Origin: a virus
Taxonomy: Duplodnaviria; Heunggongvirae; Uroviricota; Caudoviricetes
DNA length: 16,704 nt
Direction: 5' to 3' (one strand)
IMG/VR virus record: IMGVR_UViG_2541047712_000007
Shown: piece after piece, positions 1,462 to 16,704 of the stretch
How positions within the stretch are numbered: the first letter of the stretch is position 1
Layout of the letters: every line of letters begins with the position of its first letter
Position numbers and translations under genes: made by a program
The notes under the pieces: generated by a model
The model's input: the letters and a program-made list of their open reading frames with translations, nothing else
Told to the model about the DNA's origin: nothing
The model's database searches: none

Positions 1462-1896
1462 ATATGTCCTTTTATCACCACAGCAAGGCAACCCATTGAT
1501 TTAATTAAACAACCCACACTGCAAAAAGTGCTAAAAACAGCAAATTGACTACACCATTAACTACACCGTTCGGTGCACTGTATGAAACAACGTGGAACAA
1601 ATAGACACAAGAAATATACAGGCGGGTAATCTTTCCAGGGGGAAGCGCACCAATTCATGAGGGGCGTTAATGTCGATATGGGGATCCCCATAACGGGGCT
1701 ACCGGATTTTTTTTCCGGTTAACTGTTAATCAGGCTGGTGGGTTTTACCTGTTCGGTAGGTGTTATGATTATCGTAATACCTTTCCCCCAGTGGGGTAAA
1801 AGCTCCAACCGTAACGATGTTCGTTGTGGTTGCCTTGATGGTCTGCGTGGTCATTATGACCATTCCCAAAAACAACATATTCGTTGTTTTTCTGTG

Positions 1897-2350
1897 CCCC
1901 GACCTCCTCAAATTGAGGAGGTCGAAAGTATCAACCAGTTACCGCGCCGACTTCCTCAAATTGAGGTTCCCGAAAATATCAGCGGGTTAACGATCAAACT
2001 GGCGAGTAATTAAACTGCGAAAATTTCGCATGTGAGGGATGTAGTCGGCGCAATTTTGCGCTTTGCTTTAATCTCAGTAAGTTACCGCGCCAACTTCCAC
2101 AGTCTGTGGAAATTGGGAAGAATCAACGGTTTAGGCCTTAATCATCTGCGTAATCATAAGTAATCATAATGTTCATTCAGCCACGCAATTTTGCGTTATC
2201 GGGAATATCAGCAAGTTACCGCGCCGGATTCCGCCAATGGCTGTTTCCGAAAGAATCAACGGGTTAGGCTGGTTTCCCCGATGTTCGCCGCTGGCGAATT
2301 TCGAAAATATCAACCAGTTACCGCCGCAACCGCTCCGGCTTCTTCCAGTG
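1897..2350. repeat. Degenerate direct-repeat array: four units of conserved box, 24-28 bp variable hairpin-prone segment, second conserved box
   Basis: Left boxes aaagtatcaaccagttaccgcgcc (1925-1948), tcagtaagttaccgcgcc (2075-2092), tatcagcaagttaccgcgcc (2206-2225), aaaatatcaaccagttaccgccgc (2303-2326). Right boxes aaaatatcagcgggttaacg (1973-1992), aagaatcaacggtttaggcc (2118-2137), aaagaatcaacgggttaggc (2250-2269). A perfect 9-bp-stem hairpin gacctcctcAAATTgaggaggtc sits at 1901-1923. Spacers carry near-palindromes gcgaaaatttcgc / gcgcaattttgcgc. Confidence 0.65.
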
Positions 2351-8954: not shown

Positions 8955-9210
8955 AAAAAAAGTCCTGGGGTTAAGTAAGGAACTCCAGGACGCGGCAAAC
9001 ACTCAACCGTTTTTCATAAGGAAATCAGTAATCGCACCGATCGTTTTCCCGCCTGGTAATGAATATTGGCGAGCACATTAACAGGCGGGAAAATGGCCCC
9101 AGCGTCCTGGCACCACGGGCGAGAATAATCATGATTCAGGTCGGGTAAAATATGCCGTTCCGGTCAGCGAGCAACGTGGAACAACCACGAACAAATAATT
9201 TACAAAACAT

Positions 9211-9234
9211 GACAAAAAGCCGGATTGCTCCGGC
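9211..9234 (-). terminator. Rho-independent terminator ending the early/replication operon
   Basis: Minus-strand hairpin gccgga-GCAA-tccggc (GNRA loop; 9219-9234) followed by uuuuugucauguuuug, immediately after the stop at 9242. Confidence 0.7.
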
Positions 9235-9241
9235 TGTGTGA

Positions 9242-10254: not shown

Positions 10255-10490
10255 CCCTTGTCTACCTTATCTACCTTACTGGCTCTCATGCCAGTAATGG
10301 CGCGGCTTTCAGCGGGGTAGAGTGCTTTTATCCACTATCTACCCCGTGTCTACCTCCCTGTCTGATTCAGGTAAAATCAGGTAGAGAGGGTAGATAGTGG
10401 GTAGACAGTAAAAAAAGGCTATCTACCTAACTTAATGCACTGAATTAAATGTATTTTTCTTTACTCAGGTAGACAGGGTAGACAGCAATT
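10255..10490. repeat. Iteron-type replication origin
   Basis: At least 11 copies of the 7-mer GGTAGA(C/G/T) in both orientations (for example tgtctaccttatctacc 10259-10275, ggtagagagggtagatagtgggtagacag 10380-10408, caggtagacagggtagacag 10466-10485), interspersed with A/T tracts, directly 3' of the primase gene. Confidence 0.75.
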
Positions 10491-10498
10491 ACAAAAAA

Positions 10499-12253
10499 TT
10501 ATAAAAACGCGTCGCACTCGTCTGTTGTTATTGCGTTAGTCTGCGTTACTCCCTTAACTTTCCGCGTAATATATTCATGTCCGTAAACTTTCGCGGCTGG
10601 CTTCATAGCCTTGCCAAAGTCATTTACGTTTAGCGGTTTGCTCCTGCCTGCGTACGCCATAAACGCCAGATAGACGCGGTAAAGACTGTTTCTGGTCGTG
10701 TACTTCACTGAATCGCCACCGCCGCCCATCATCAGGCCGCGTGCTTCCTCCAGAAAATTCAGGAACTGGCAAAACTCAATAACCGGATCCGTCTGTTGCT
10801 TTATTGCCAGAGCTTCATCACCGTCACGCTGTTCCAGTAGTAAAGCCCTCGCCTTCTCAGGGTCGGTAAAGTTCGCCAGCAATCGGCGGATAATGACAGG
10901 GATTTCAGCCGCGATCTTTTCCGGTAGCTCCCTGTCTTTTTCGGCCTCACTGACGATATTGTCGAAACGGAAAATCACGCGACGACGTGCCACACCTCCG
11001 GCCCGTTCGGTGAATATCATCGGGTTATTGTTGGTCGCCAGCACCACCGCCCTGATTACAGCCGTGAAACGCTTTTCGTATTTCGGGTTAATTTCCACGG
11101 GGTCACCGCCCGTGATTTTCTTGATGCCCGTTCCTTCGCCTGTATATTTCGGCTGGTCAGCCAGGACGATAAGACGACTCCCGACAACCTGCGCACGTCC
11201 ACCAGCATCATCAAGCGATGTCATTTCAGCGCTTACCGTGTTCTGTTTCCCTGCCAGAAGGCTGGCTATGTGTGTGAATGTACTTTTACCGCTCCCGCCG
11301 TCTCCGGTGGCCTCAATAAACATCTGCCAGTCGTACCGGTTCGCCATAATCATGTACAGCGCGGCACATATACGCATCATCTTGCGCGGGTCTTTTCCGG
11401 CTGCGTGCTCAAGCCATTTATGAAAGTTTGGCGCGTTATCGCGGATGTTCTCCCCTGGTGCTGGTGGCGTGTACTCAATGCCGTTGTGCGTGGTGATCCA
11501 GTTCTCCGGCGTGTGCGGGGAAAATTCCCCCGTTTTCAGGTCAAGCGCACCATTGGCGAACGGCAGCAAATCGCCGGACGGCTCGCCCATTGGTTCGGCA
11601 ATAACTTTTAACGCTTCCACGGCGTTATTGATTACGCGCTTGCTGAAAGTGGCCCTGTGCTCTGAATAGATCGCCACCATTTCGCGGCTAAGTTCCATTG
11701 TGCTGACCGGACACCATACCCCGCCGCGCCATACGTGAACGATTTCACTTTCAGGATGTACGCAAACGCCATCAAAGCGATCGGCAAGCAGCTGCGCGCG
11801 CTCACTGTCCGCCATCTGCGAAAGTTGCGCCTTTTGCTTTACCGGAAGCTCAATGACCAGACCATCAGAAAGATTCTGGCGCTCACGGGCCAGATATTCG
11901 CGCCAGTTCTCCACCTTCTGACCGTGCATACCCTCAGGATAAAAATTTGCATCCTGTACGCCTGCCGCCGCCAGCTTCTGGCCAATCGCCTTTATCATTA
12001 CTGGCGCAAGATATCCGGCCCTGAATATGCGCACGGATTTTCTGCCTTCCGGCACAATTTGCAGCTTATCCAGTTCTGATAACTGCTGCTCCCCAAGCCA
12101 CACAGGAGGCTCATTATCTCCGGCCATACGCGCATCATGTTCCTGCCATTGTTTCGCGTGTGCCCAGGCATCACTACCCGCAAAAATAATGACTTCTGTT
12201 CCTTTGTGTTTTATGCCGCGTGACTGCTGTTTTACGTTCGGTGCCAGTTTCAT
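10499..12253 (-). CDS. P4-family primase / SF3-type helicase replication protein (584 aa)
   Basis: Walker A motif TGDGGSGKSTF in the C-terminal half, size, and the position upstream of the iteron origin. ATG overlaps the upstream stop (ATGA). Confidence 0.9.
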   Translation of the reverse strand: MKLAPNVKQQSRGIKHKGTEVIIFAGSDAWAHAKQWQEHDARMAGDNEPPVWLGEQQLSELDKLQIVPEGRKSVRIFRAGYLAPVMIKAIGQKLAAAGVQDANFYPEGMHGQKVENWREYLARERQNLSDGLVIELPVKQKAQLSQMADSERAQLLADRFDGVCVHPESEIVHVWRGGVWCPVSTMELSREMVAIYSEHRATFSKRVINNAVEALKVIAEPMGEPSGDLLPFANGALDLKTGEFSPHTPENWITTHNGIEYTPPAPGENIRDNAPNFHKWLEHAAGKDPRKMMRICAALYMIMANRYDWQMFIEATGDGGSGKSTFTHIASLLAGKQNTVSAEMTSLDDAGGRAQVVGSRLIVLADQPKYTGEGTGIKKITGGDPVEINPKYEKRFTAVIRAVVLATNNNPMIFTERAGGVARRRVIFRFDNIVSEAEKDRELPEKIAAEIPVIIRRLLANFTDPEKARALLLEQRDGDEALAIKQQTDPVIEFCQFLNFLEEARGLMMGGGGDSVKYTTRNSLYRVYLAFMAYAGRSKPLNVNDFGKAMKPAAKVYGHEYITRKVKGVTQTNAITTDECDAFL

Positions 12254-13369: not shown

Positions 13370-13586
13370 GGTGCACCTCCTGCACATCAGCCATGATAAT
13401 TTTTCCGGCCTTATCCAGTGCCTGATCGGCTTTTAGCTGCACAAATGCTAAATAATGGAAGATGCATTCTGATTCTCTGGCTGCGTGTTTATGCGCCCTG
13501 TCAGCAATAACAGAAATATCAATAAGCGCGTGCATCAGCGTAGTGAGCGCGGCGGCTGCTGCGTCCGGTGTGGTTTTATTGCACAT
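13362..13586 (-). CDS. Hypothetical protein (74 aa)
   Basis: ATG at 13586 with AGGGGGT Shine-Dalgarno. Confidence 0.5.
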   Translation of the reverse strand: MCNKTTPDAAAAALTTLMHALIDISVIADRAHKHAARESECIFHYLAFVQLKADQALDKAGKIIMADVQEVHHA

Positions 13587-13782
13587 GGCCTACCCCCTGG
13601 CGAATACGGGCAGCGAATACCATCACGCAGCCATCAGGAGATTGCTGACGCGCTTCCTGTTCGCTGGTGGCCTCGATGGTAATCACGCGCGGTTGTGCCG
13701 TGCTCAGGGCGATAAAACGCCAGATGTATTTATTCAGGTCGTGCGAATCCCGCCCTTGCGGGTGTGTGGTATGATTTCTCAT
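13576..13782 (-). CDS. Hypothetical protein (68 aa), first gene of the leftward operon
   Basis: ATG at 13782 with GAGG 5 nt upstream. It is the C-terminal, plausible part of a 430-aa track ORF whose remainder is antisense to plus-strand genes and the operator region. Confidence 0.45.
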   Translation of the reverse strand: MRNHTTHPQGRDSHDLNKYIWRFIALSTAQPRVITIEATSEQEARQQSPDGCVMVFAARIRQGVGHVQ

Positions 13783-13878
13783 AGCTACCTCGATACTTTC
13801 GCTATCGTTGGTGGTTAGAAGCCCGGTTAGTGTTAGCGCACTGCCGGGTTTCGTCGTTTCTGCACCTTGCGCCAACAA

Positions 13879-13931
13879 GGTGTTGAACACCAATTTAAAC
13901 CCAGGTGTTAAACACGTCAAGTGTTGAACAC
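13879..13931. promoter_or_regulatory. Triple palindromic operator in a divergent promoter region
   Basis: Three copies of the palindrome GTGTT-N-AACAC: gtgttgaacac (13880-13890), gtgttaaacac (13905-13915), gtgttgaacac (13921-13931), lying between the leftward operon start (13782) and the plus-strand RHH gene (13982). Confidence 0.7.
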
Positions 13932-13981
13932 TTATTTTTTTTCCTGCATACTGCATTTGTTTTTTATGAGGGGTACACCAC

Positions 13982-14161
13982 ATGGCGACAAAAGCAGTAA
14001 ACGCAAAATCACAAACCGTTGCGGCAAGGGTTCCGCATGAAGTTATGAACAATGTTGAGGCGGTAAAAATGCCTGGCGAAAGTACGGGGCAATTTGTTAC
14101 TGCGGCATTAAAACGAGAAGTTGAATATCGCCAGCGGCGCAAGGCCAAAGAACCAGAGTAA
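13982..14161 (+). CDS. Ribbon-helix-helix (Arc/CopG-like) DNA-binding protein, 59 aa; candidate island repressor
   Basis: ATG at 13982 with GAGGGG Shine-Dalgarno. The translation has an RHH-like beta-strand (QTVAARVPHEV) followed by two helices. Below the ORF-track length cutoff; I translated it directly. Confidence 0.6.
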   Translation: MATKAVNAKSQTVAARVPHEVMNNVEAVKMPGESTGQFVTAALKREVEYRQRRKAKEPE

Positions 14162-14218
14162 TCACCATCAGCGCCGTGGTGTGAGGAACTACGGCGCATT
14201 GCTATGCAGGACAACACA

Positions 14219-14392
14219 ATGACCGATAAAGAATTGACCAAAACATTATCACCGGCACGGAAAAGACGGCGCAGAAAGATAGAGCATGAATCAGAAAGAT
14301 TCGCGCCATGTGCTTTTGCCCTTGAGCAATTCCTTAAAGAGTACAGGGAAAAGCGCTCATTGCAGGTATGGCAACGAACTGAACCAGACTGA
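14219..14392 (+). CDS. Hypothetical small basic protein (about 57 aa)
   Basis: ATG at 14219 with AGGA 7 nt upstream (track ORF starts at 14204). Arg-rich (RKRRRRK); followed by a plus-strand terminator. Confidence 0.3.
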   Translation: MTDKELTKTLSPARKRRRRKIEHESERFAPCAFALEQFLKEYREKRSLQVWQRTEPD

Positions 14393-14470
14393 TTGCATTG
14401 CCCACCAGCCGCAAATGTGGCATTGTTGGCAATGCTCATGCGTTGGGGATAACGTGTAGCTTGTGTCGAG

Positions 14471-14500
14471 GGGCCACCGTAGCGGGTGGCCTTTGTTTTG
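14471..14500 (+). terminator. Rho-independent terminator (plus strand)
   Basis: Hairpin ggccacc-gtagcg-ggtggcc followed by tttgttttg. Confidence 0.6.
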
Positions 14501-14594
14501 CCCGTTATTCGGCAATTGTGGCGCTTCTCCACATGGTTGATATAATCCCACTGCTCAGATTCATTTTTTGCGCAGTAGGTTAATTGTTCACAAA

Positions 14595-14626
14595 GGCGCT
14601 CCGGCAACGGGGCGCTTTTTGTTTTT
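14595..14626 (+). terminator. Rho-independent terminator (plus strand), GNRA loop
   Basis: Hairpin gcgctccg-GCAA-cggggcgc (8 bp including one G-U) followed by tttttgttttt. Confidence 0.6.
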
Positions 14627-14920
14627 ATTAGTTTGTAGAAACCTGACTCAGAGATAATGCTCATATTCTGATTGCCGTCAGGGGTGTAAGTTAAATTTAC
14701 TCCCTTTTTATCATCAAACATCTGCAACGCTCTGGCGTTAGCAATATTGGTTTCACTCCCGCCAGTAAGGCCGGAAATAACCGGAATAATTTCGGCAAAA
14801 TTTTGCAGATTCTGTTTTTCAGGACGAACGAAGCCCCGCCCTTGTTCGGGAGAATATCCAGTATTCATGGTTAGATCTCTGTATTAGTGGATGGGTGGCG
14901 GCTGTGTGCCGCCAGCCTGA

Positions 14921-15109
14921 TTAGTGAACTGCCTCGCAGCTGTCCTTCCATGCCAGAACTTCGGATAAAGACCAGCCAACGGAACGACCGCCCAGCTTAC
15001 GCCGTGATGGGAATTGTCCGGCTTTTTCCAGGCGGTACCGACATGAGCGGCTCAGGCCTGTAAGTTGCTGACATTCTTTTTCACGTATAAAGCGATCTGT
15101 GCTTAACAC
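14921..15109 (-). CDS. alpA: AlpA-family transcriptional regulator / excisionase-like protein (62 aa)
   Basis: QQLTGLSRSCRYRLEKAGQFP...KLGGRSVGWSLSEVLAW matches the AlpA winged-helix signature. GTG start at 15109 with AGGGGGAA upstream. Confidence 0.8.
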   Translation of the reverse strand: MLSTDRFIREKECQQLTGLSRSCRYRLEKAGQFPSRRKLGGRSVGWSLSEVLAWKDSCEAVH

Positions 15110-15113
15110 AATT

Positions 15114-15195
15114 CCCCCTTTGTTGTTTCTTAAAGAGTCATTGGGTGGATTATTGGGTTGGGTTGTGTCGGATTGTGTCAGGGTGTTTGTGGAAT
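15114..15195. promoter_or_regulatory. TTGT-rich phased direct repeats immediately upstream of alpA
   Basis: 10-bp register: ttgggtggat / tattgggttg / ggttgtgtcg / gattgtgtca / gggtgtttgt (15141-15190), preceded by tttgttgtttc (15117-15127). Confidence 0.45.
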
Positions 15196-15390
15196 GGCAA
15201 ACACTGGCGGCGGTCGTTTTACAGAAGCAGGGGGAATGAGAATAAAAACTCTTTTAATTCATTATGATGCAAAGGCATAAAATTTTACTTTTACGCCTTT
15301 TTTACATATTTTTAAGAGTGATTCGCCAGTGTATAAAAAAACAGTACACCTATAAAAATCAAATGGTTATTACGATGGCTGATTTTTAAC

Positions 15391-15450
15391 CCGTTGTTCC
15401 ATTTTGTTCCTTGTTGTTCGTCGTTGTGTCTCGTTGTTTCACGTTGTCCG
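15391..15450. repeat. Six tandem 10-bp repeats (NCGTTGTNYC) 3' of int
   Basis: ccgttgttcc / attttgttcc / ttgttgttcg / tcgttgtgtc / tcgttgtttc / acgttgtccg in an exact 10-bp register. Confidence 0.6.
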
Positions 15451-15474
15451 CGTCCTGAAAAATCGCAAAAAAAA

Positions 15475-16704
15475 TTATATTTCTCTGGCTATTGGCAATG
15501 TGGTTACGTTTTCATGTGTTCCCGCCAGTATCCCTAACCGCTCCGTCCACATATCCAGCGCGTCACGTTTCGCATCCAGATAACGGGAATGGTTATAGAC
15601 TCGTTGCATCCCTGGCATCTGATGACCTGTAAGCTGCTCCACGACGTGAGGATCCACGCCTAAATCGTTCAGCATCGTTGTAAAGGTGCGCCGGATGTCA
15701 TGCAGTGACCAGTGAGGGTGTTTTAGCCTCCTGTGCGCTAATCTGCCGTACTGCGACACGCTTGTTTCCTGTTTCACTTCCCCCAGCAATAAGCCCGTGT
15801 GCCTGTTCTGCTCCACCAGCTGCGTGACGAACGGCAGTATTGCTTCCGGTATGGGCCGGAATATTGCCACCTTCGTTTTGCTGTGTTCTTTCGGCACGGT
15901 CCAGAGCATTTCGGTAAAATCCCACTCGCTGATCTCCGATAACCTCAGTTCTACCGTCCGGCATCCGAAAACAATCAGGAGGCGGATTAGTGCGACGTAG
16001 TAAGGGGAAAATATTTTTTTGTCCAGTGCCTGCAATAATTCGCCAAGTTCTTTGGTGCTTAAGACGCGCTCGCTTATATCCGGTTTTTTCCCAACGTCCG
16101 CCACACTCATATCATCAAGAACGTTGCTGATTGCATAGCGCCGCCTCCGGCAGAACTTAAGCGCCTGTTTGCACGTCTGTAGCAAGAATCCGGCAGTAAC
16201 AGGCGTTCGCTTTGCCACCTGGTCAAAACAGGCCAGCCAGTGCCGTAGCTCGCATTTATCCAGCGGCATAGCACCAATGTGCTGTATTACGTGATTATTA
16301 AGGCGCTTTTTCAGGGCGGCATAATCCACGCGGTTTTCCTTTGCGTACGACTCAAGCCAGTAGGTGAGCGCATCGCCAACCGTTACCGGCTTTAACGCTT
16401 CCTGTACGGTGTAATTCATTTCATGACGTGGATTTTTCCCCTCTGCCAGCCATGCGCGACACTGGGCGGCTTTTTCCCTGGCTGATTTCAGGCTCAGATC
16501 AGGATAATTTCCCAGCTTAATGCGTTCCGGTGGTGCCCCCCTTCCCGTTCCGGCCCTGTAAGTGAAATACCAGGTTAAAAGGCCACTGGTTGAATGCCTG
16601 ACGCTCAGGTTTCCACCGTCATTAAGAAAGGCTGTTTTTTGGGCGGGTGTGCCGTTGATTTTCCTCAGCTGTGTATCGCTCAGTTTGTTAAGTGCTCTGC
16701 TCAT
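15475..16704 (-). CDS. int: Tyrosine integrase, P4-like family (409 aa)
   Basis: C-terminal catalytic signature LHDIRRTF...GHQMPGMQRVYNHSRY (His-x-x-Arg box plus terminal Tyr) and a long N-terminal arm/core-binding region. Start codon is the last three bases of the window. Confidence 0.93.
   Translation of the reverse strand: MSRALNKLSDTQLRKINGTPAQKTAFLNDGGNLSVRHSTSGLLTWYFTYRAGTGRGAPPERIKLGNYPDLSLKSAREKAAQCRAWLAEGKNPRHEMNYTVQEALKPVTVGDALTYWLESYAKENRVDYAALKKRLNNHVIQHIGAMPLDKCELRHWLACFDQVAKRTPVTAGFLLQTCKQALKFCRRRRYAISNVLDDMSVADVGKKPDISERVLSTKELGELLQALDKKIFSPYYVALIRLLIVFGCRTVELRLSEISEWDFTEMLWTVPKEHSKTKVAIFRPIPEAILPFVTQLVEQNRHTGLLLGEVKQETSVSQYGRLAHRRLKHPHWSLHDIRRTFTTMLNDLGVDPHVVEQLTGHQMPGMQRVYNHSRYLDAKRDALDMWTERLGILAGTHENVTTLPIAREI

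Follow-up and report, generated by a model that had tools for sequence, protein, structure and literature searches.

An E. coli island between phoQ and roxA

The window, that is, the whole 16,704-nucleotide stretch of viral DNA that was analyzed (IMG/VR record IMGVR_UViG_2541047712_000007), carries a phage-inducible chromosomal island (PICI) of E. coli that is inserted between phoQ and roxA. Over 601 bases around the arrays described below, the region between int and alpA shows an identity of 100% with E. coli strain 266917_2 and of 99.7% with EcCICFT073, which is the island of E. coli CFT073 and the prototype Gram-negative PICI (PMC6092414). In both strains the segment lies within an island between phoQ and roxA. 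The genes of the window island include those for terminase, portal, protease and capsid, and it is therefore a capsid-forming PICI.

The region of interest is the 365-bp intergenic region downstream of int and upstream of alpA. The naming of these two genes in the original prediction was right, as Pfam assigned an Arm-DNA-bind_3 integrase to one and Phage_AlpA to the other. No terminator was found 3' of int, and a search of the intergenic region against Rfam returned no match at the gathering threshold or at an E value of ≤1. The features of this region, and of the parts of the island that share its repeats, are collected in Table 1.

Table 1. Positions in the window of the genes, repeat units and predicted control elements
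Feature	Position	Strand	Description
att core, left copy	1462-1469	+	ATATGTCC; true island boundary, by comparison with the K-12 empty site
IHF consensus site, P' arm	1489-1501	minus	Between core and doubled motif
Doubled 12-bp motif	1544-1567	+	ATTGACTACACC ATTAACTACACC; P' arm, repeated in P arm
Three phased units	1583-1612	+	AAACAACGTG GAACAAATAG ACACAAGAAA; P' arm, 17 bp past doubled motif
Late-region array	9170-9217	+	4-5 phased units: AGCAACGTGG AACAACCACG AACAAATAAT TTACAAAACA TGACAAAA
Intrinsic terminator hairpin	9218-9235	minus	Ends perC/replication transcript; adjoins late-region array
alpA	14921-15109	minus	62 aa; Pfam Phage_AlpA, E 3e-18; excisionase-type winged helix-turn-helix; proposed array binder
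Proximal phased units	15141-15180	minus	TGACACAATC, CGACACAACC, then degenerate CAACCCAATA, ATCCACCCAA
PalpA -10 hexamer (predicted)	15172-15177	minus	CACAAT; inside first proximal unit TGACACAATC
PalpA -35 hexamer (predicted)	15195-15200	minus	TTGCCA; TTTGCCA in 59/59 relatives
AT-rich spacer	15225-15390		24-32% GC; conserved blocks such as TTTTTTATACACTGGCGAATCAC; constrained length
IHF consensus site	15357-15369	+	AATCAAATGGTTA (WATCARNNNNTTR); perfect consensus; about 20 bp from distal array
Distal array	15391-15450	minus	Six tandem 10-bp units
int	15475-16704	minus	P4-type tyrosine integrase; Arm-DNA-bind_3 (N-terminal, arm-binding) and Phage_integrase domains

A six-unit array of 10-bp repeats follows int

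The distal array starts 24 bp past the int stop codon, at about -285 to -226 relative to the predicted alpA transcription start. On the plus strand its units read CCGTTGTTCC, ATTTTGTTCC, TTGTTGTTCG, TCGTTGTGTC, TCGTTGTTTC and ACGTTGTCCG, which corresponds to GGACAACGTG AAACAACGAG ACACAACGAC GAACAACAAG GAACAAAATG GAACAACGGG on the alpA-sense strand. The tetramer TTGT is exact in all six units and recurs in a 10-bp register (15394, 15404, 15414, 15424, 15434 and 15444). Both the placement of six 10-bp units right after the int stop and the consensus NCGTTGTNYC, as originally proposed, were accurate. When every 4-mer was scanned at periods of 7 to 13 over the whole 16.7-kb window, this TTGT run of six was the sole run longer than four, as compared with a longest run of three in 60 first-order Markov simulations. 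A period of 10 was also returned at the distal array by Tandem Repeats Finder. The distal array is thus a real phased repeat, far beyond chance.

A coding origin of the repeat, in open reading frames at 15394-15537 and 15404-15583, was considered. Relatives differ from one another by whole 10-bp units, and since such steps in copy number would shift the reading frame, the coding explanation was ruled out.

The region was then compared with its counterparts in 17 E. coli chromosomes and 57 IMG/VR contigs, giving 74 regions, of which 59 were distinct in sequence. The islands concerned sit at roxA, at abgR, at tqsA or next to a magnesium-chelatase pseudogene. Searches with AlpA as the query returned 3 loci among contigs and 19 near-identical proteins in the protein database. 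The distal array was present in all 59 distinct regions, with 5-7 units in each when single-base lapses were allowed. Absence of the arrays from related islands had been named as grounds for abandoning the original prediction, and their presence throughout therefore removes that objection. Across 284 units from the 59 distinct relatives, the family unit on the alpA-sense strand is S-n-A-ACAA-y-g-n. The ACAA cores stay in register and the three bases that separate them are free to vary, while position -3 of the unit is always G or C. Distal copies are gained or lost solely in whole 10-bp blocks.

The proximal units overlap the predicted alpA core promoter

The original prediction also placed a second phased set at 15141-15190, just upstream of alpA, and this claim stood only in part. 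Two clear units, GGTTGTGTC and GATTGTGTC, are present at 15162-15180 and lie 10 bp apart, but their neighbors at 15141-15160 are degenerate (ATTGGG) and slightly out of register, with irregular 12- and 9-bp spacing. Tandem Repeats Finder scored the proximal set at 2.8 copies with 77% matches. Taken alone, this set is not above chance; the case for its reality is that it is conserved and overlaps a conserved promoter. In related islands it reads GGGAACAATAC GACACAATAA GACACC, and in one relative it is short by exactly one 10-bp unit.

The promoter in question is a predicted sigma-70 promoter of alpA (PalpA). Its -10 hexamer has TG directly 5', as in an extended -10 element, and is separated from the -35 hexamer by a 17-bp spacer. 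This spacer length, together with CACAAT or AACAAT at -10, is kept in 59/59 relatives, such that TTGCCA-17-CACAAT shows both the 16- to 18-bp separation and the conservation required of a sigma-70 promoter. Transcription of alpA is predicted to start near 15165, and the proximal units would span the -10 element plus the first ~25 nt of the transcript. Because the -10 and start region lie inside the proximal units, the set is better described as the predicted core promoter itself than as a site upstream of alpA, and the original prediction was mistaken on this point.

Exactly 10 bp downstream of the -10 hexamer, the second proximal unit holds a -10-like hexamer, CACAAC, which is CACAAT in other islands. 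This duplication of a -10-like element in the alpA start region is recorded as a curiosity only.

An AT-rich spacer and an IHF consensus site separate the two sets at a fixed distance

The AT-rich stretch said to lie between the two sets was recovered, with a GC content of 24-32% across about 15225-15390. Next to the distal array, this stretch holds an IHF consensus site that is found beside the array at the same offset in 56/59 distinct relatives, about 29 bp past the last unit. In the window as a whole, 10 matches to the IHF consensus were observed, compared with 1.1 expected. Between the last distal unit and the -35 hexamer lie 196-200 bp in 56/59 regions and 206-208 bp in the other 3, and this array-to-promoter distance is kept despite 20-30% sequence divergence within the spacer. 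The conserved IHF site and the fixed spacing, which the original prediction had missed, connect the two arrays and point to a defined three-dimensional assembly.

A 10-bp periodicity of A-rich units, combined with a spacer of 24-32% GC and an IHF site, would also suit a host protein that recognizes direct repeats of 10-11 bp, such as a response regulator of the OmpR/PhoB type, or an effect of DNA shape, in which anisotropically bendable DNA flanks an H-NS-silenced AT-rich tract. Some units read GAAACA or TGTTC, which we take to resemble OmpR and TorR half-sites. We nevertheless consider a host factor or DNA shape to be very unlikely as the explanation. The spacers drift while every base of the ACAA core is conserved, a pattern that resembles direct readout; the flavor of the units differs between island classes within one host species; and the units co-occur with recombination sites.

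The layout of the int-alpA region also matches the published description of a PICI replication origin (PMC6092414), and the region was examined as a candidate second origin. This candidate was rejected and is extremely improbable. The mapped type of origin lies 3' of the primase gene, and the island's own Pri-Rep iterons (GGTAGACAG-like, 10338-10507) are located elsewhere and are unrelated to the TTGT units. In addition, the int-alpA region carries the conserved alpA promoter.

The same units recur in both attP arms and ahead of the late operon

From the empty site in K-12, the crossover maps to ATATGTCC. This comparison excluded as the att core a 75-bp direct repeat at the island ends, which is therefore a module that lies within both attP arms. 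In each arm it consists of a doubled 12-bp motif, 17 bp of intervening DNA and three phased ACAA units. The doubled motif reads ATT(A/G)ACTACACC twice and lies at about +90 and -139. Its P-arm copy is upstream of int, outside the window, and the matching trio of units in the P arm was located at 18863-18895 of L001. By chance, 0.01 three-unit phased clusters would be expected per window. The doubled motif probably represents the Int arm-type sites, and the repeat units accompany these probable integrase arm sites as one trio in each att arm. The doubled motif is absent from the int-alpA intergenic region, which leaves the ACAA units as the only repeated element there.

A further array lies directly past a minus-strand terminator and ahead of the late (capsid and packaging) operon. 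It is also present in an island of the second AlpA allele class, hereafter allele 2 (L025, 9877-9918), and is identical in both allele classes. The occurrence of the units at both attP arms as well as at the late operon points to a combined role of their binding protein as excisionase and regulator.

AlpA has the fold of proteins that bind phased direct repeats

The gene beside the sites, alpA, encodes a small winged-helix protein that resembles recombination directionality factors (RDFs). By sequence, the closest solved relative of AlpA is the GIsul2 excisionase (PDB 8c3t, E 2.6e-6), and the same structure was the best fold match (TM 0.78) of a single-sequence model of AlpA (pLDDT 88.5). The model also superposes on RdfS (8dgl, TM 0.66), TorI (1z4h, TM 0.64), BldC and the DNA-binding domain of CarH. 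All of these proteins bind tandem direct repeats or form filaments. No NCBIfam model matched AlpA, BLASTP detected no sequence similarity between AlpA and lambda Xis, and a sequence search of the PDB gave no match to TorI.

The AlpA protein of P. aeruginosa (PA0907), an antiterminator whose loading site falls between the -35 and the -10 and is accompanied by a -10-like pause element, was considered as a model and rejected as not homologous. Its contact residues extend up to H142, so that it is much longer than 62 aa, and its fold, which has eight helices and an HTH at the C terminus, is like that of the antiterminator 21Q. No chain of the AlpA-loading complex was among the PDB sequence matches of the island AlpA, and the two proteins share their name by coincidence.

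In Gram-negative PICIs, AlpA is required for induction, excision and transfer. The protein activates its own promoter, though not Pint, and its overexpression sets off both excision and replication (PMC6092414). When the primers of that study were mapped here, the published PalpA-lacZ fragment corresponded to window positions 15052-15507 and therefore holds both arrays. The pBAD-alpA plasmid activated this reporter in DH5alpha, a strain that has neither the Int of the island nor any of its other genes (PMC6092414). In the Vibrio PICMI satellites, excision requires AlpA and needs nothing beyond it, and this AlpA is predicted to be structurally similar to known excisionases (PMC10803314). The literature searched describes no AlpA binding site in these islands.

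RDFs occupy direct repeats that are spaced by one turn, and they do so cooperatively, as monomers arranged head to tail (PMC7498355). Tandem direct repeats one helical turn apart, at least three in a row, are what was found here, with six TTGT units in the window and 5-7 in relatives. The original prediction held that a small regulator would bind such phased repeats cooperatively on the same face of the helix. This idea is well supported, if indirectly, because it is the documented mode of excisionase-type winged-helix proteins (PMC7498355), AlpA has their fold, and AlpA alone activates the published fragment with both arrays in a strain that lacks the island. On balance, we infer from sequence, structural model, published data and analogy that the arrays are probably operator sites for the island's own AlpA.

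AlpA is favored over the integrase as the candidate binder

An alternative binder, likewise named in the original prediction, is the N-terminal domain of Int, for which the units would be arm-type sites, with Int shutting the alpA promoter or blocking read-through. The three-unit arrays of both attP arms lie within about 150 bp of the core, Int has an Arm-DNA-bind_3 domain, and no terminator was found past int. Proximal units over the -10 element suit repression, and in KplE1 the IntS integrase does repress a promoter via arm-type sites (PMC2951348). The present islands have no known repressor (PMC6092414), and the arm-site reading would make the constitutively made Int the missing repressor of Gram-negative PICIs.

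We consider this role for Int unlikely. Arm-type sites are expected within roughly 150 bp of the core, whereas the int-alpA arrays lie 1.25 kb from it, beyond the int start at 16704; by location, arm-type sites could be only the separate trio at 1583-1612 and its P-arm counterpart. Further, the doubled motif, with four half-sites over two arms, better suits the four Int arm domains, and it has a counterpart in the helper-embedded PICIs (HE-PICIs; PMC10111431). Finally, AlpA alone activates the reporter fragment in a strain without this Int.

The sequence of the units was also compared with the recognition helix of AlpA and with the Int N-domain. Islands whose AlpA helix reads CRTTR (the cspD-site, rcnR-site and metagenomic roxA-site islands) have 3-4 P-arm units of the form CGAAC(A), while those with SR(S/T)CR have 0-1 CGAAC units, the remainder being G(A/G)AACA. 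The pairing of CGAAC(A) with CRTTR holds in three Int lineages that are 49-77% alike, which is a small number of lineages. Among these three CRTTR islands, the Int N-domains have a mutual identity of only 49-58%; more generally, islands with N-domains that are 49-60% alike have the unit flavor in common. The Int of the cspD-site island is 77% identical to that of the window, and an SR(S/T)CR island at equal distance has G(A/G)AACA units. The flavor of the units thus differs at equal similarity of the Int N-domain, whereas the sequence of arm-type sites should follow that domain, and it seems to track the AlpA helix instead. This tentative covariation favors AlpA, within few lineages and with unit flavors that overlap (CGAACAA is a subset of SnAACAA). 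Islands at roxA, abgR, tqsA and yifB have a nearly identical P arm, so these islands cannot separate Int from AlpA. Given the 1.25-kb distance from the core, the activation of the reporter without Int and the apparent covariation with the AlpA helix, AlpA is favored over the Int arm domain as the candidate binder.

Proposed action of AlpA and the points against it

If AlpA is the binder, the alpA control region would consist of the six-unit distal array, the IHF site, the ~165-bp AT-rich spacer and the units over the -10 and start region. A helper phage would start alpA expression, and AlpA would fill the arrays head to tail and cooperatively. A bend induced by IHF could then bring the distal AlpA filament to the promoter and raise transcription, so that AlpA on the distal array would account for the positive autoregulation of alpA, which is known. 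In the attP arms, the trios beside the probable Int arm sites may let AlpA act as the recombination directionality factor, and a further candidate AlpA array would stand ahead of the late operon. The architecture of the sequence with its conservation, the fold of AlpA and, by published work, the AlpA-dependent activation of a fragment with the arrays are shown; we infer the AlpA contact, the IHF bending, the transcription start and the mode of activation in this scheme.

Several observations speak against the AlpA reading. Repression is what one would expect from units over -10 and +1, while the measured effect is activation, and sigma-70 promoters are not usually activated from positions -226 to -285. 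A Pint reporter did not respond to AlpA (PMC6092414), although the P arm carries ACAA units. The late-region array is the same in both AlpA allele classes. Lastly, the cspD-site (allele-2) islands have 2-3 AATATC units after int instead of an ACAA array. Their CGAAC units lie in the att arms and in the 5' UTR of alpA, where three of them follow the promoter TTGCGT-17-CACGAT. With AATATC at the distal position in allele 2, that position may belong to another factor.

One such factor could come from the helper phage. The distal array would then be a helper sensor, at which an excisionase or Cox-like factor of the helper fires alpA before AlpA takes over. An alpA reporter that includes the arrays responds to the helpers lambda and phi80, the inducer not being named (PMC6092414), and cross-talk between PICI and helper excisionases has been reported (PMC11773190). 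By the works in the reference list of PMC7498355, P2 Cox activates prophage P4 and has sites of action on both phage genomes. The different motif at the distal position of allele-2 islands would fit a sensor, and the lambda Xis site X1 (TATGTTGTGTTTT) has GTTGTGT in common with the window units. A 7-mer match of this kind is weak evidence, however, and AlpA and lambda Xis share no detectable sequence similarity. The distal units are also of the same flavor as the att-arm units of the same island, and several unrelated helpers induce the island. A helper sensor is therefore quite unlikely in our estimation. We hold similarly little belief in a wider version, in which either a helper repeat-binding protein or the displacement of Int as a hidden repressor would fire alpA through the distal array together with the IHF site and the units at the promoter, with AlpA thereafter spreading over the same units there, in both att arms and at the late operon. 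Were it true, the arrays would be the cis-acting switch for helper induction of Gram-negative PICIs.

Comparison with known excisionase systems

Operator arrays for AlpA, the favored reading, would most likely be an element type that is ordinary for excisionase-type regulators, at sites that we did not find described for this island family. Since the kind of element is ordinary, the map is of practical more than of conceptual value. In Gram-negative PICIs, AlpA serves as the master switch (PMC6092414). The map defines the unit (10 bp, S-n-A-ACAA-y), a six-unit distal array that stands with its IHF site at a fixed spacing from a predicted promoter, trios in both attP arms and an array at the late operon, by which the AlpA switch of a well-studied satellite family becomes a set of defined, mutable predicted sites.

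The closest parallels are Apl and, in P2-like phages, Cox. Apl of coliphage 186, which is both an excisionase and a transcriptional regulator and a sequence outlier among RDFs, has 7 sites at promoters and 5 at att, which it binds cooperatively and with bending of the DNA (PMC7498355). Like the proposed AlpA system, those of Apl and Cox combine a small monomeric protein and direct repeats of 10-11 bp with IHF and Int as partners (PMC7498355). In place of the 7 and 5 sites of Apl, the window island has 6 plus about 2-4 units at alpA and 3 per att arm. Apl and Cox repress promoters, with sites between face-to-face promoters, whereas AlpA activates its own promoter (PMC6092414). Unlike in the Apl and Cox systems, the main candidate AlpA array lies about 230-285 bp upstream, with the IHF site in between.

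TorI, the RDF of prophage KplE1, is an atypical winged-helix excisionase on which the AlpA model superposes (TM 0.64). Its sites form blocks of two and three, the three being 2 nt apart with a 10-bp period, and their 5-bp cores (GTTCG, GATCG or GTCCG) stand beside the IntS arm-type sites (PMC2951348). The allele-2 PICI units have as their core CGAAC, the reverse complement of the TorI core GTTCG. TorI sites were reported on attL only and repress intS (PMC2951348), and AlpA is without effect on Pint. In contrast to the TorI sites, the PICI arrays occur in both arms, at alpA and ahead of the late genes.

RdfS of ICEMlSym R7A is a winged-helix RDF that forms head-to-tail filaments; it binds attP and its own promoter and thereby coordinates expression with excision (PMC11963761). 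RdfS differs in its extra N-terminal helix and in lacking a clear consensus motif, in contrast to the sharp ACAA core of the PICI units. Vis of the satellite phage P4, a satellite-encoded protein of the AlpA family that is needed for excision, also regulates late promoters. According to Fillol-Salom et al., Vis is remotely related to PICI AlpA, and P4 and PICIs differ in genome organization (PMC6092414).

A doubled 12-bp motif is known from the HE-PICIs, in which tgTGTATTGCantgTGTATTGCa occurs once per attP arm, co-oriented and at fixed distances from the core; Int arm domains or AlpA were named as its possible binders (PMC10111431). The doubled motif was reported as unique to HE-PICIs, and adjacent 10-bp arrays were not described there (PMC10111431). 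In the window island, the doubled motif has a different sequence, and each copy is followed by an ACAA trio.

Conservation of the int-alpA layout among related islands

Comparison of the islands carrying a second AlpA allele (58% identical) showed that their int-alpA region is non-homologous, yet is laid out on the same plan. In these islands, int is followed on its 3' side by a terminator hairpin and two to three phased AATATC units. The second-allele promoter was identified as TTGCGT-17-CACGAT, and is followed by three CGAAC units with a spacing of 10 bp in the 5' untranslated region.

Some islands have an additional gene separating int from alpA; in these, a hairpin of terminator-like or stem-loop type lies directly 5' of alpA. 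One such island is L024, where a T-run comes after the hairpin CGTCCTCGTTCGGCAACGTTCGAGGACG and CGTTCG occurs twice within the hairpin, at 10-bp spacing. This arrangement hints that alpA may be subject to read-through control in the extra-gene islands.

In the window, a -10-like hexamer, CACAAC (15162-15167), lies around the predicted start and repeats, exactly 10 bp downstream, the -10 element of the predicted alpA promoter. At the equivalent position in other related islands, the -10-like repeat is CACAAT. At other promoters, a downstream -10-like repeat arranged in this way causes promoter-proximal pausing that depends on sigma-70.

Attachment site and other repeats

Sister islands in which the P arm of the attachment site is nearly the same have different crossover cores at abgR, at tqsA and at a site beside a magnesium-chelatase pseudogene. 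Thus, only core specificity has changed.

In each unit of the hairpin-unit array, a hairpin precedes a conserved box, GAAA(A/G)TATCA(A/G)CnnGTTAC. The sequence of the hairpin stem varies between units (for example, 1900-1924 versus 2090-2116), and the box fits the IHF consensus, supplying six of the ten IHF matches in the window (1.1 expected). Strain CFT073 has three copies. The array has the P' att arm on one side and the last late gene on the other.

The short tandem repeats found downstream of the primase gene are the ori iterons expected of a PICI; they bear no relation to the TTGT units, the 10-bp phased repeats between int and alpA.

Features of the related islands and the window (window coordinates unless a locus is named)
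Feature	Location	Strand	Remarks
Crossover core ATATG(T/C)CC	1462-1469; L001 18977-18984		phoQ/roxA site
Hairpin-unit array	1896-2334	+	~7-8 units, period ~48 bp
Tandem repeat families CCTTATCTA, GGGTAGACAGT, GGTAGACAG	10256-10507		Downstream of primase gene
YlcI/YnfO family gene	13982-14161	+	Inside 430-aa frame, opposite strand
Hairpin before alpA	L024 2784-2874; L096-L102; L108 3448-3500		Terminator-like or stem-loop
Second-AlpA-allele islands	L022/L025; L104, L105		L022/L025: E. coli MMC-J-0020, cspD site

Region 13576-14868

A 430-aa open frame on the minus strand (13576-14868) was rejected as a gene; RefSeq has only a BRO-N domain pseudogene there (~14137-14664). At the corresponding position, other islands carry intact antA/antB-type genes. 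Rfam gave a match to the SymR antitoxin RNA below the gathering threshold (13783-13855, plus strand; 33 bits, gathering score 61; E 7e-4), and the matched segment lies just upstream of an icd-like gene (~13576-13782), on the opposite strand.
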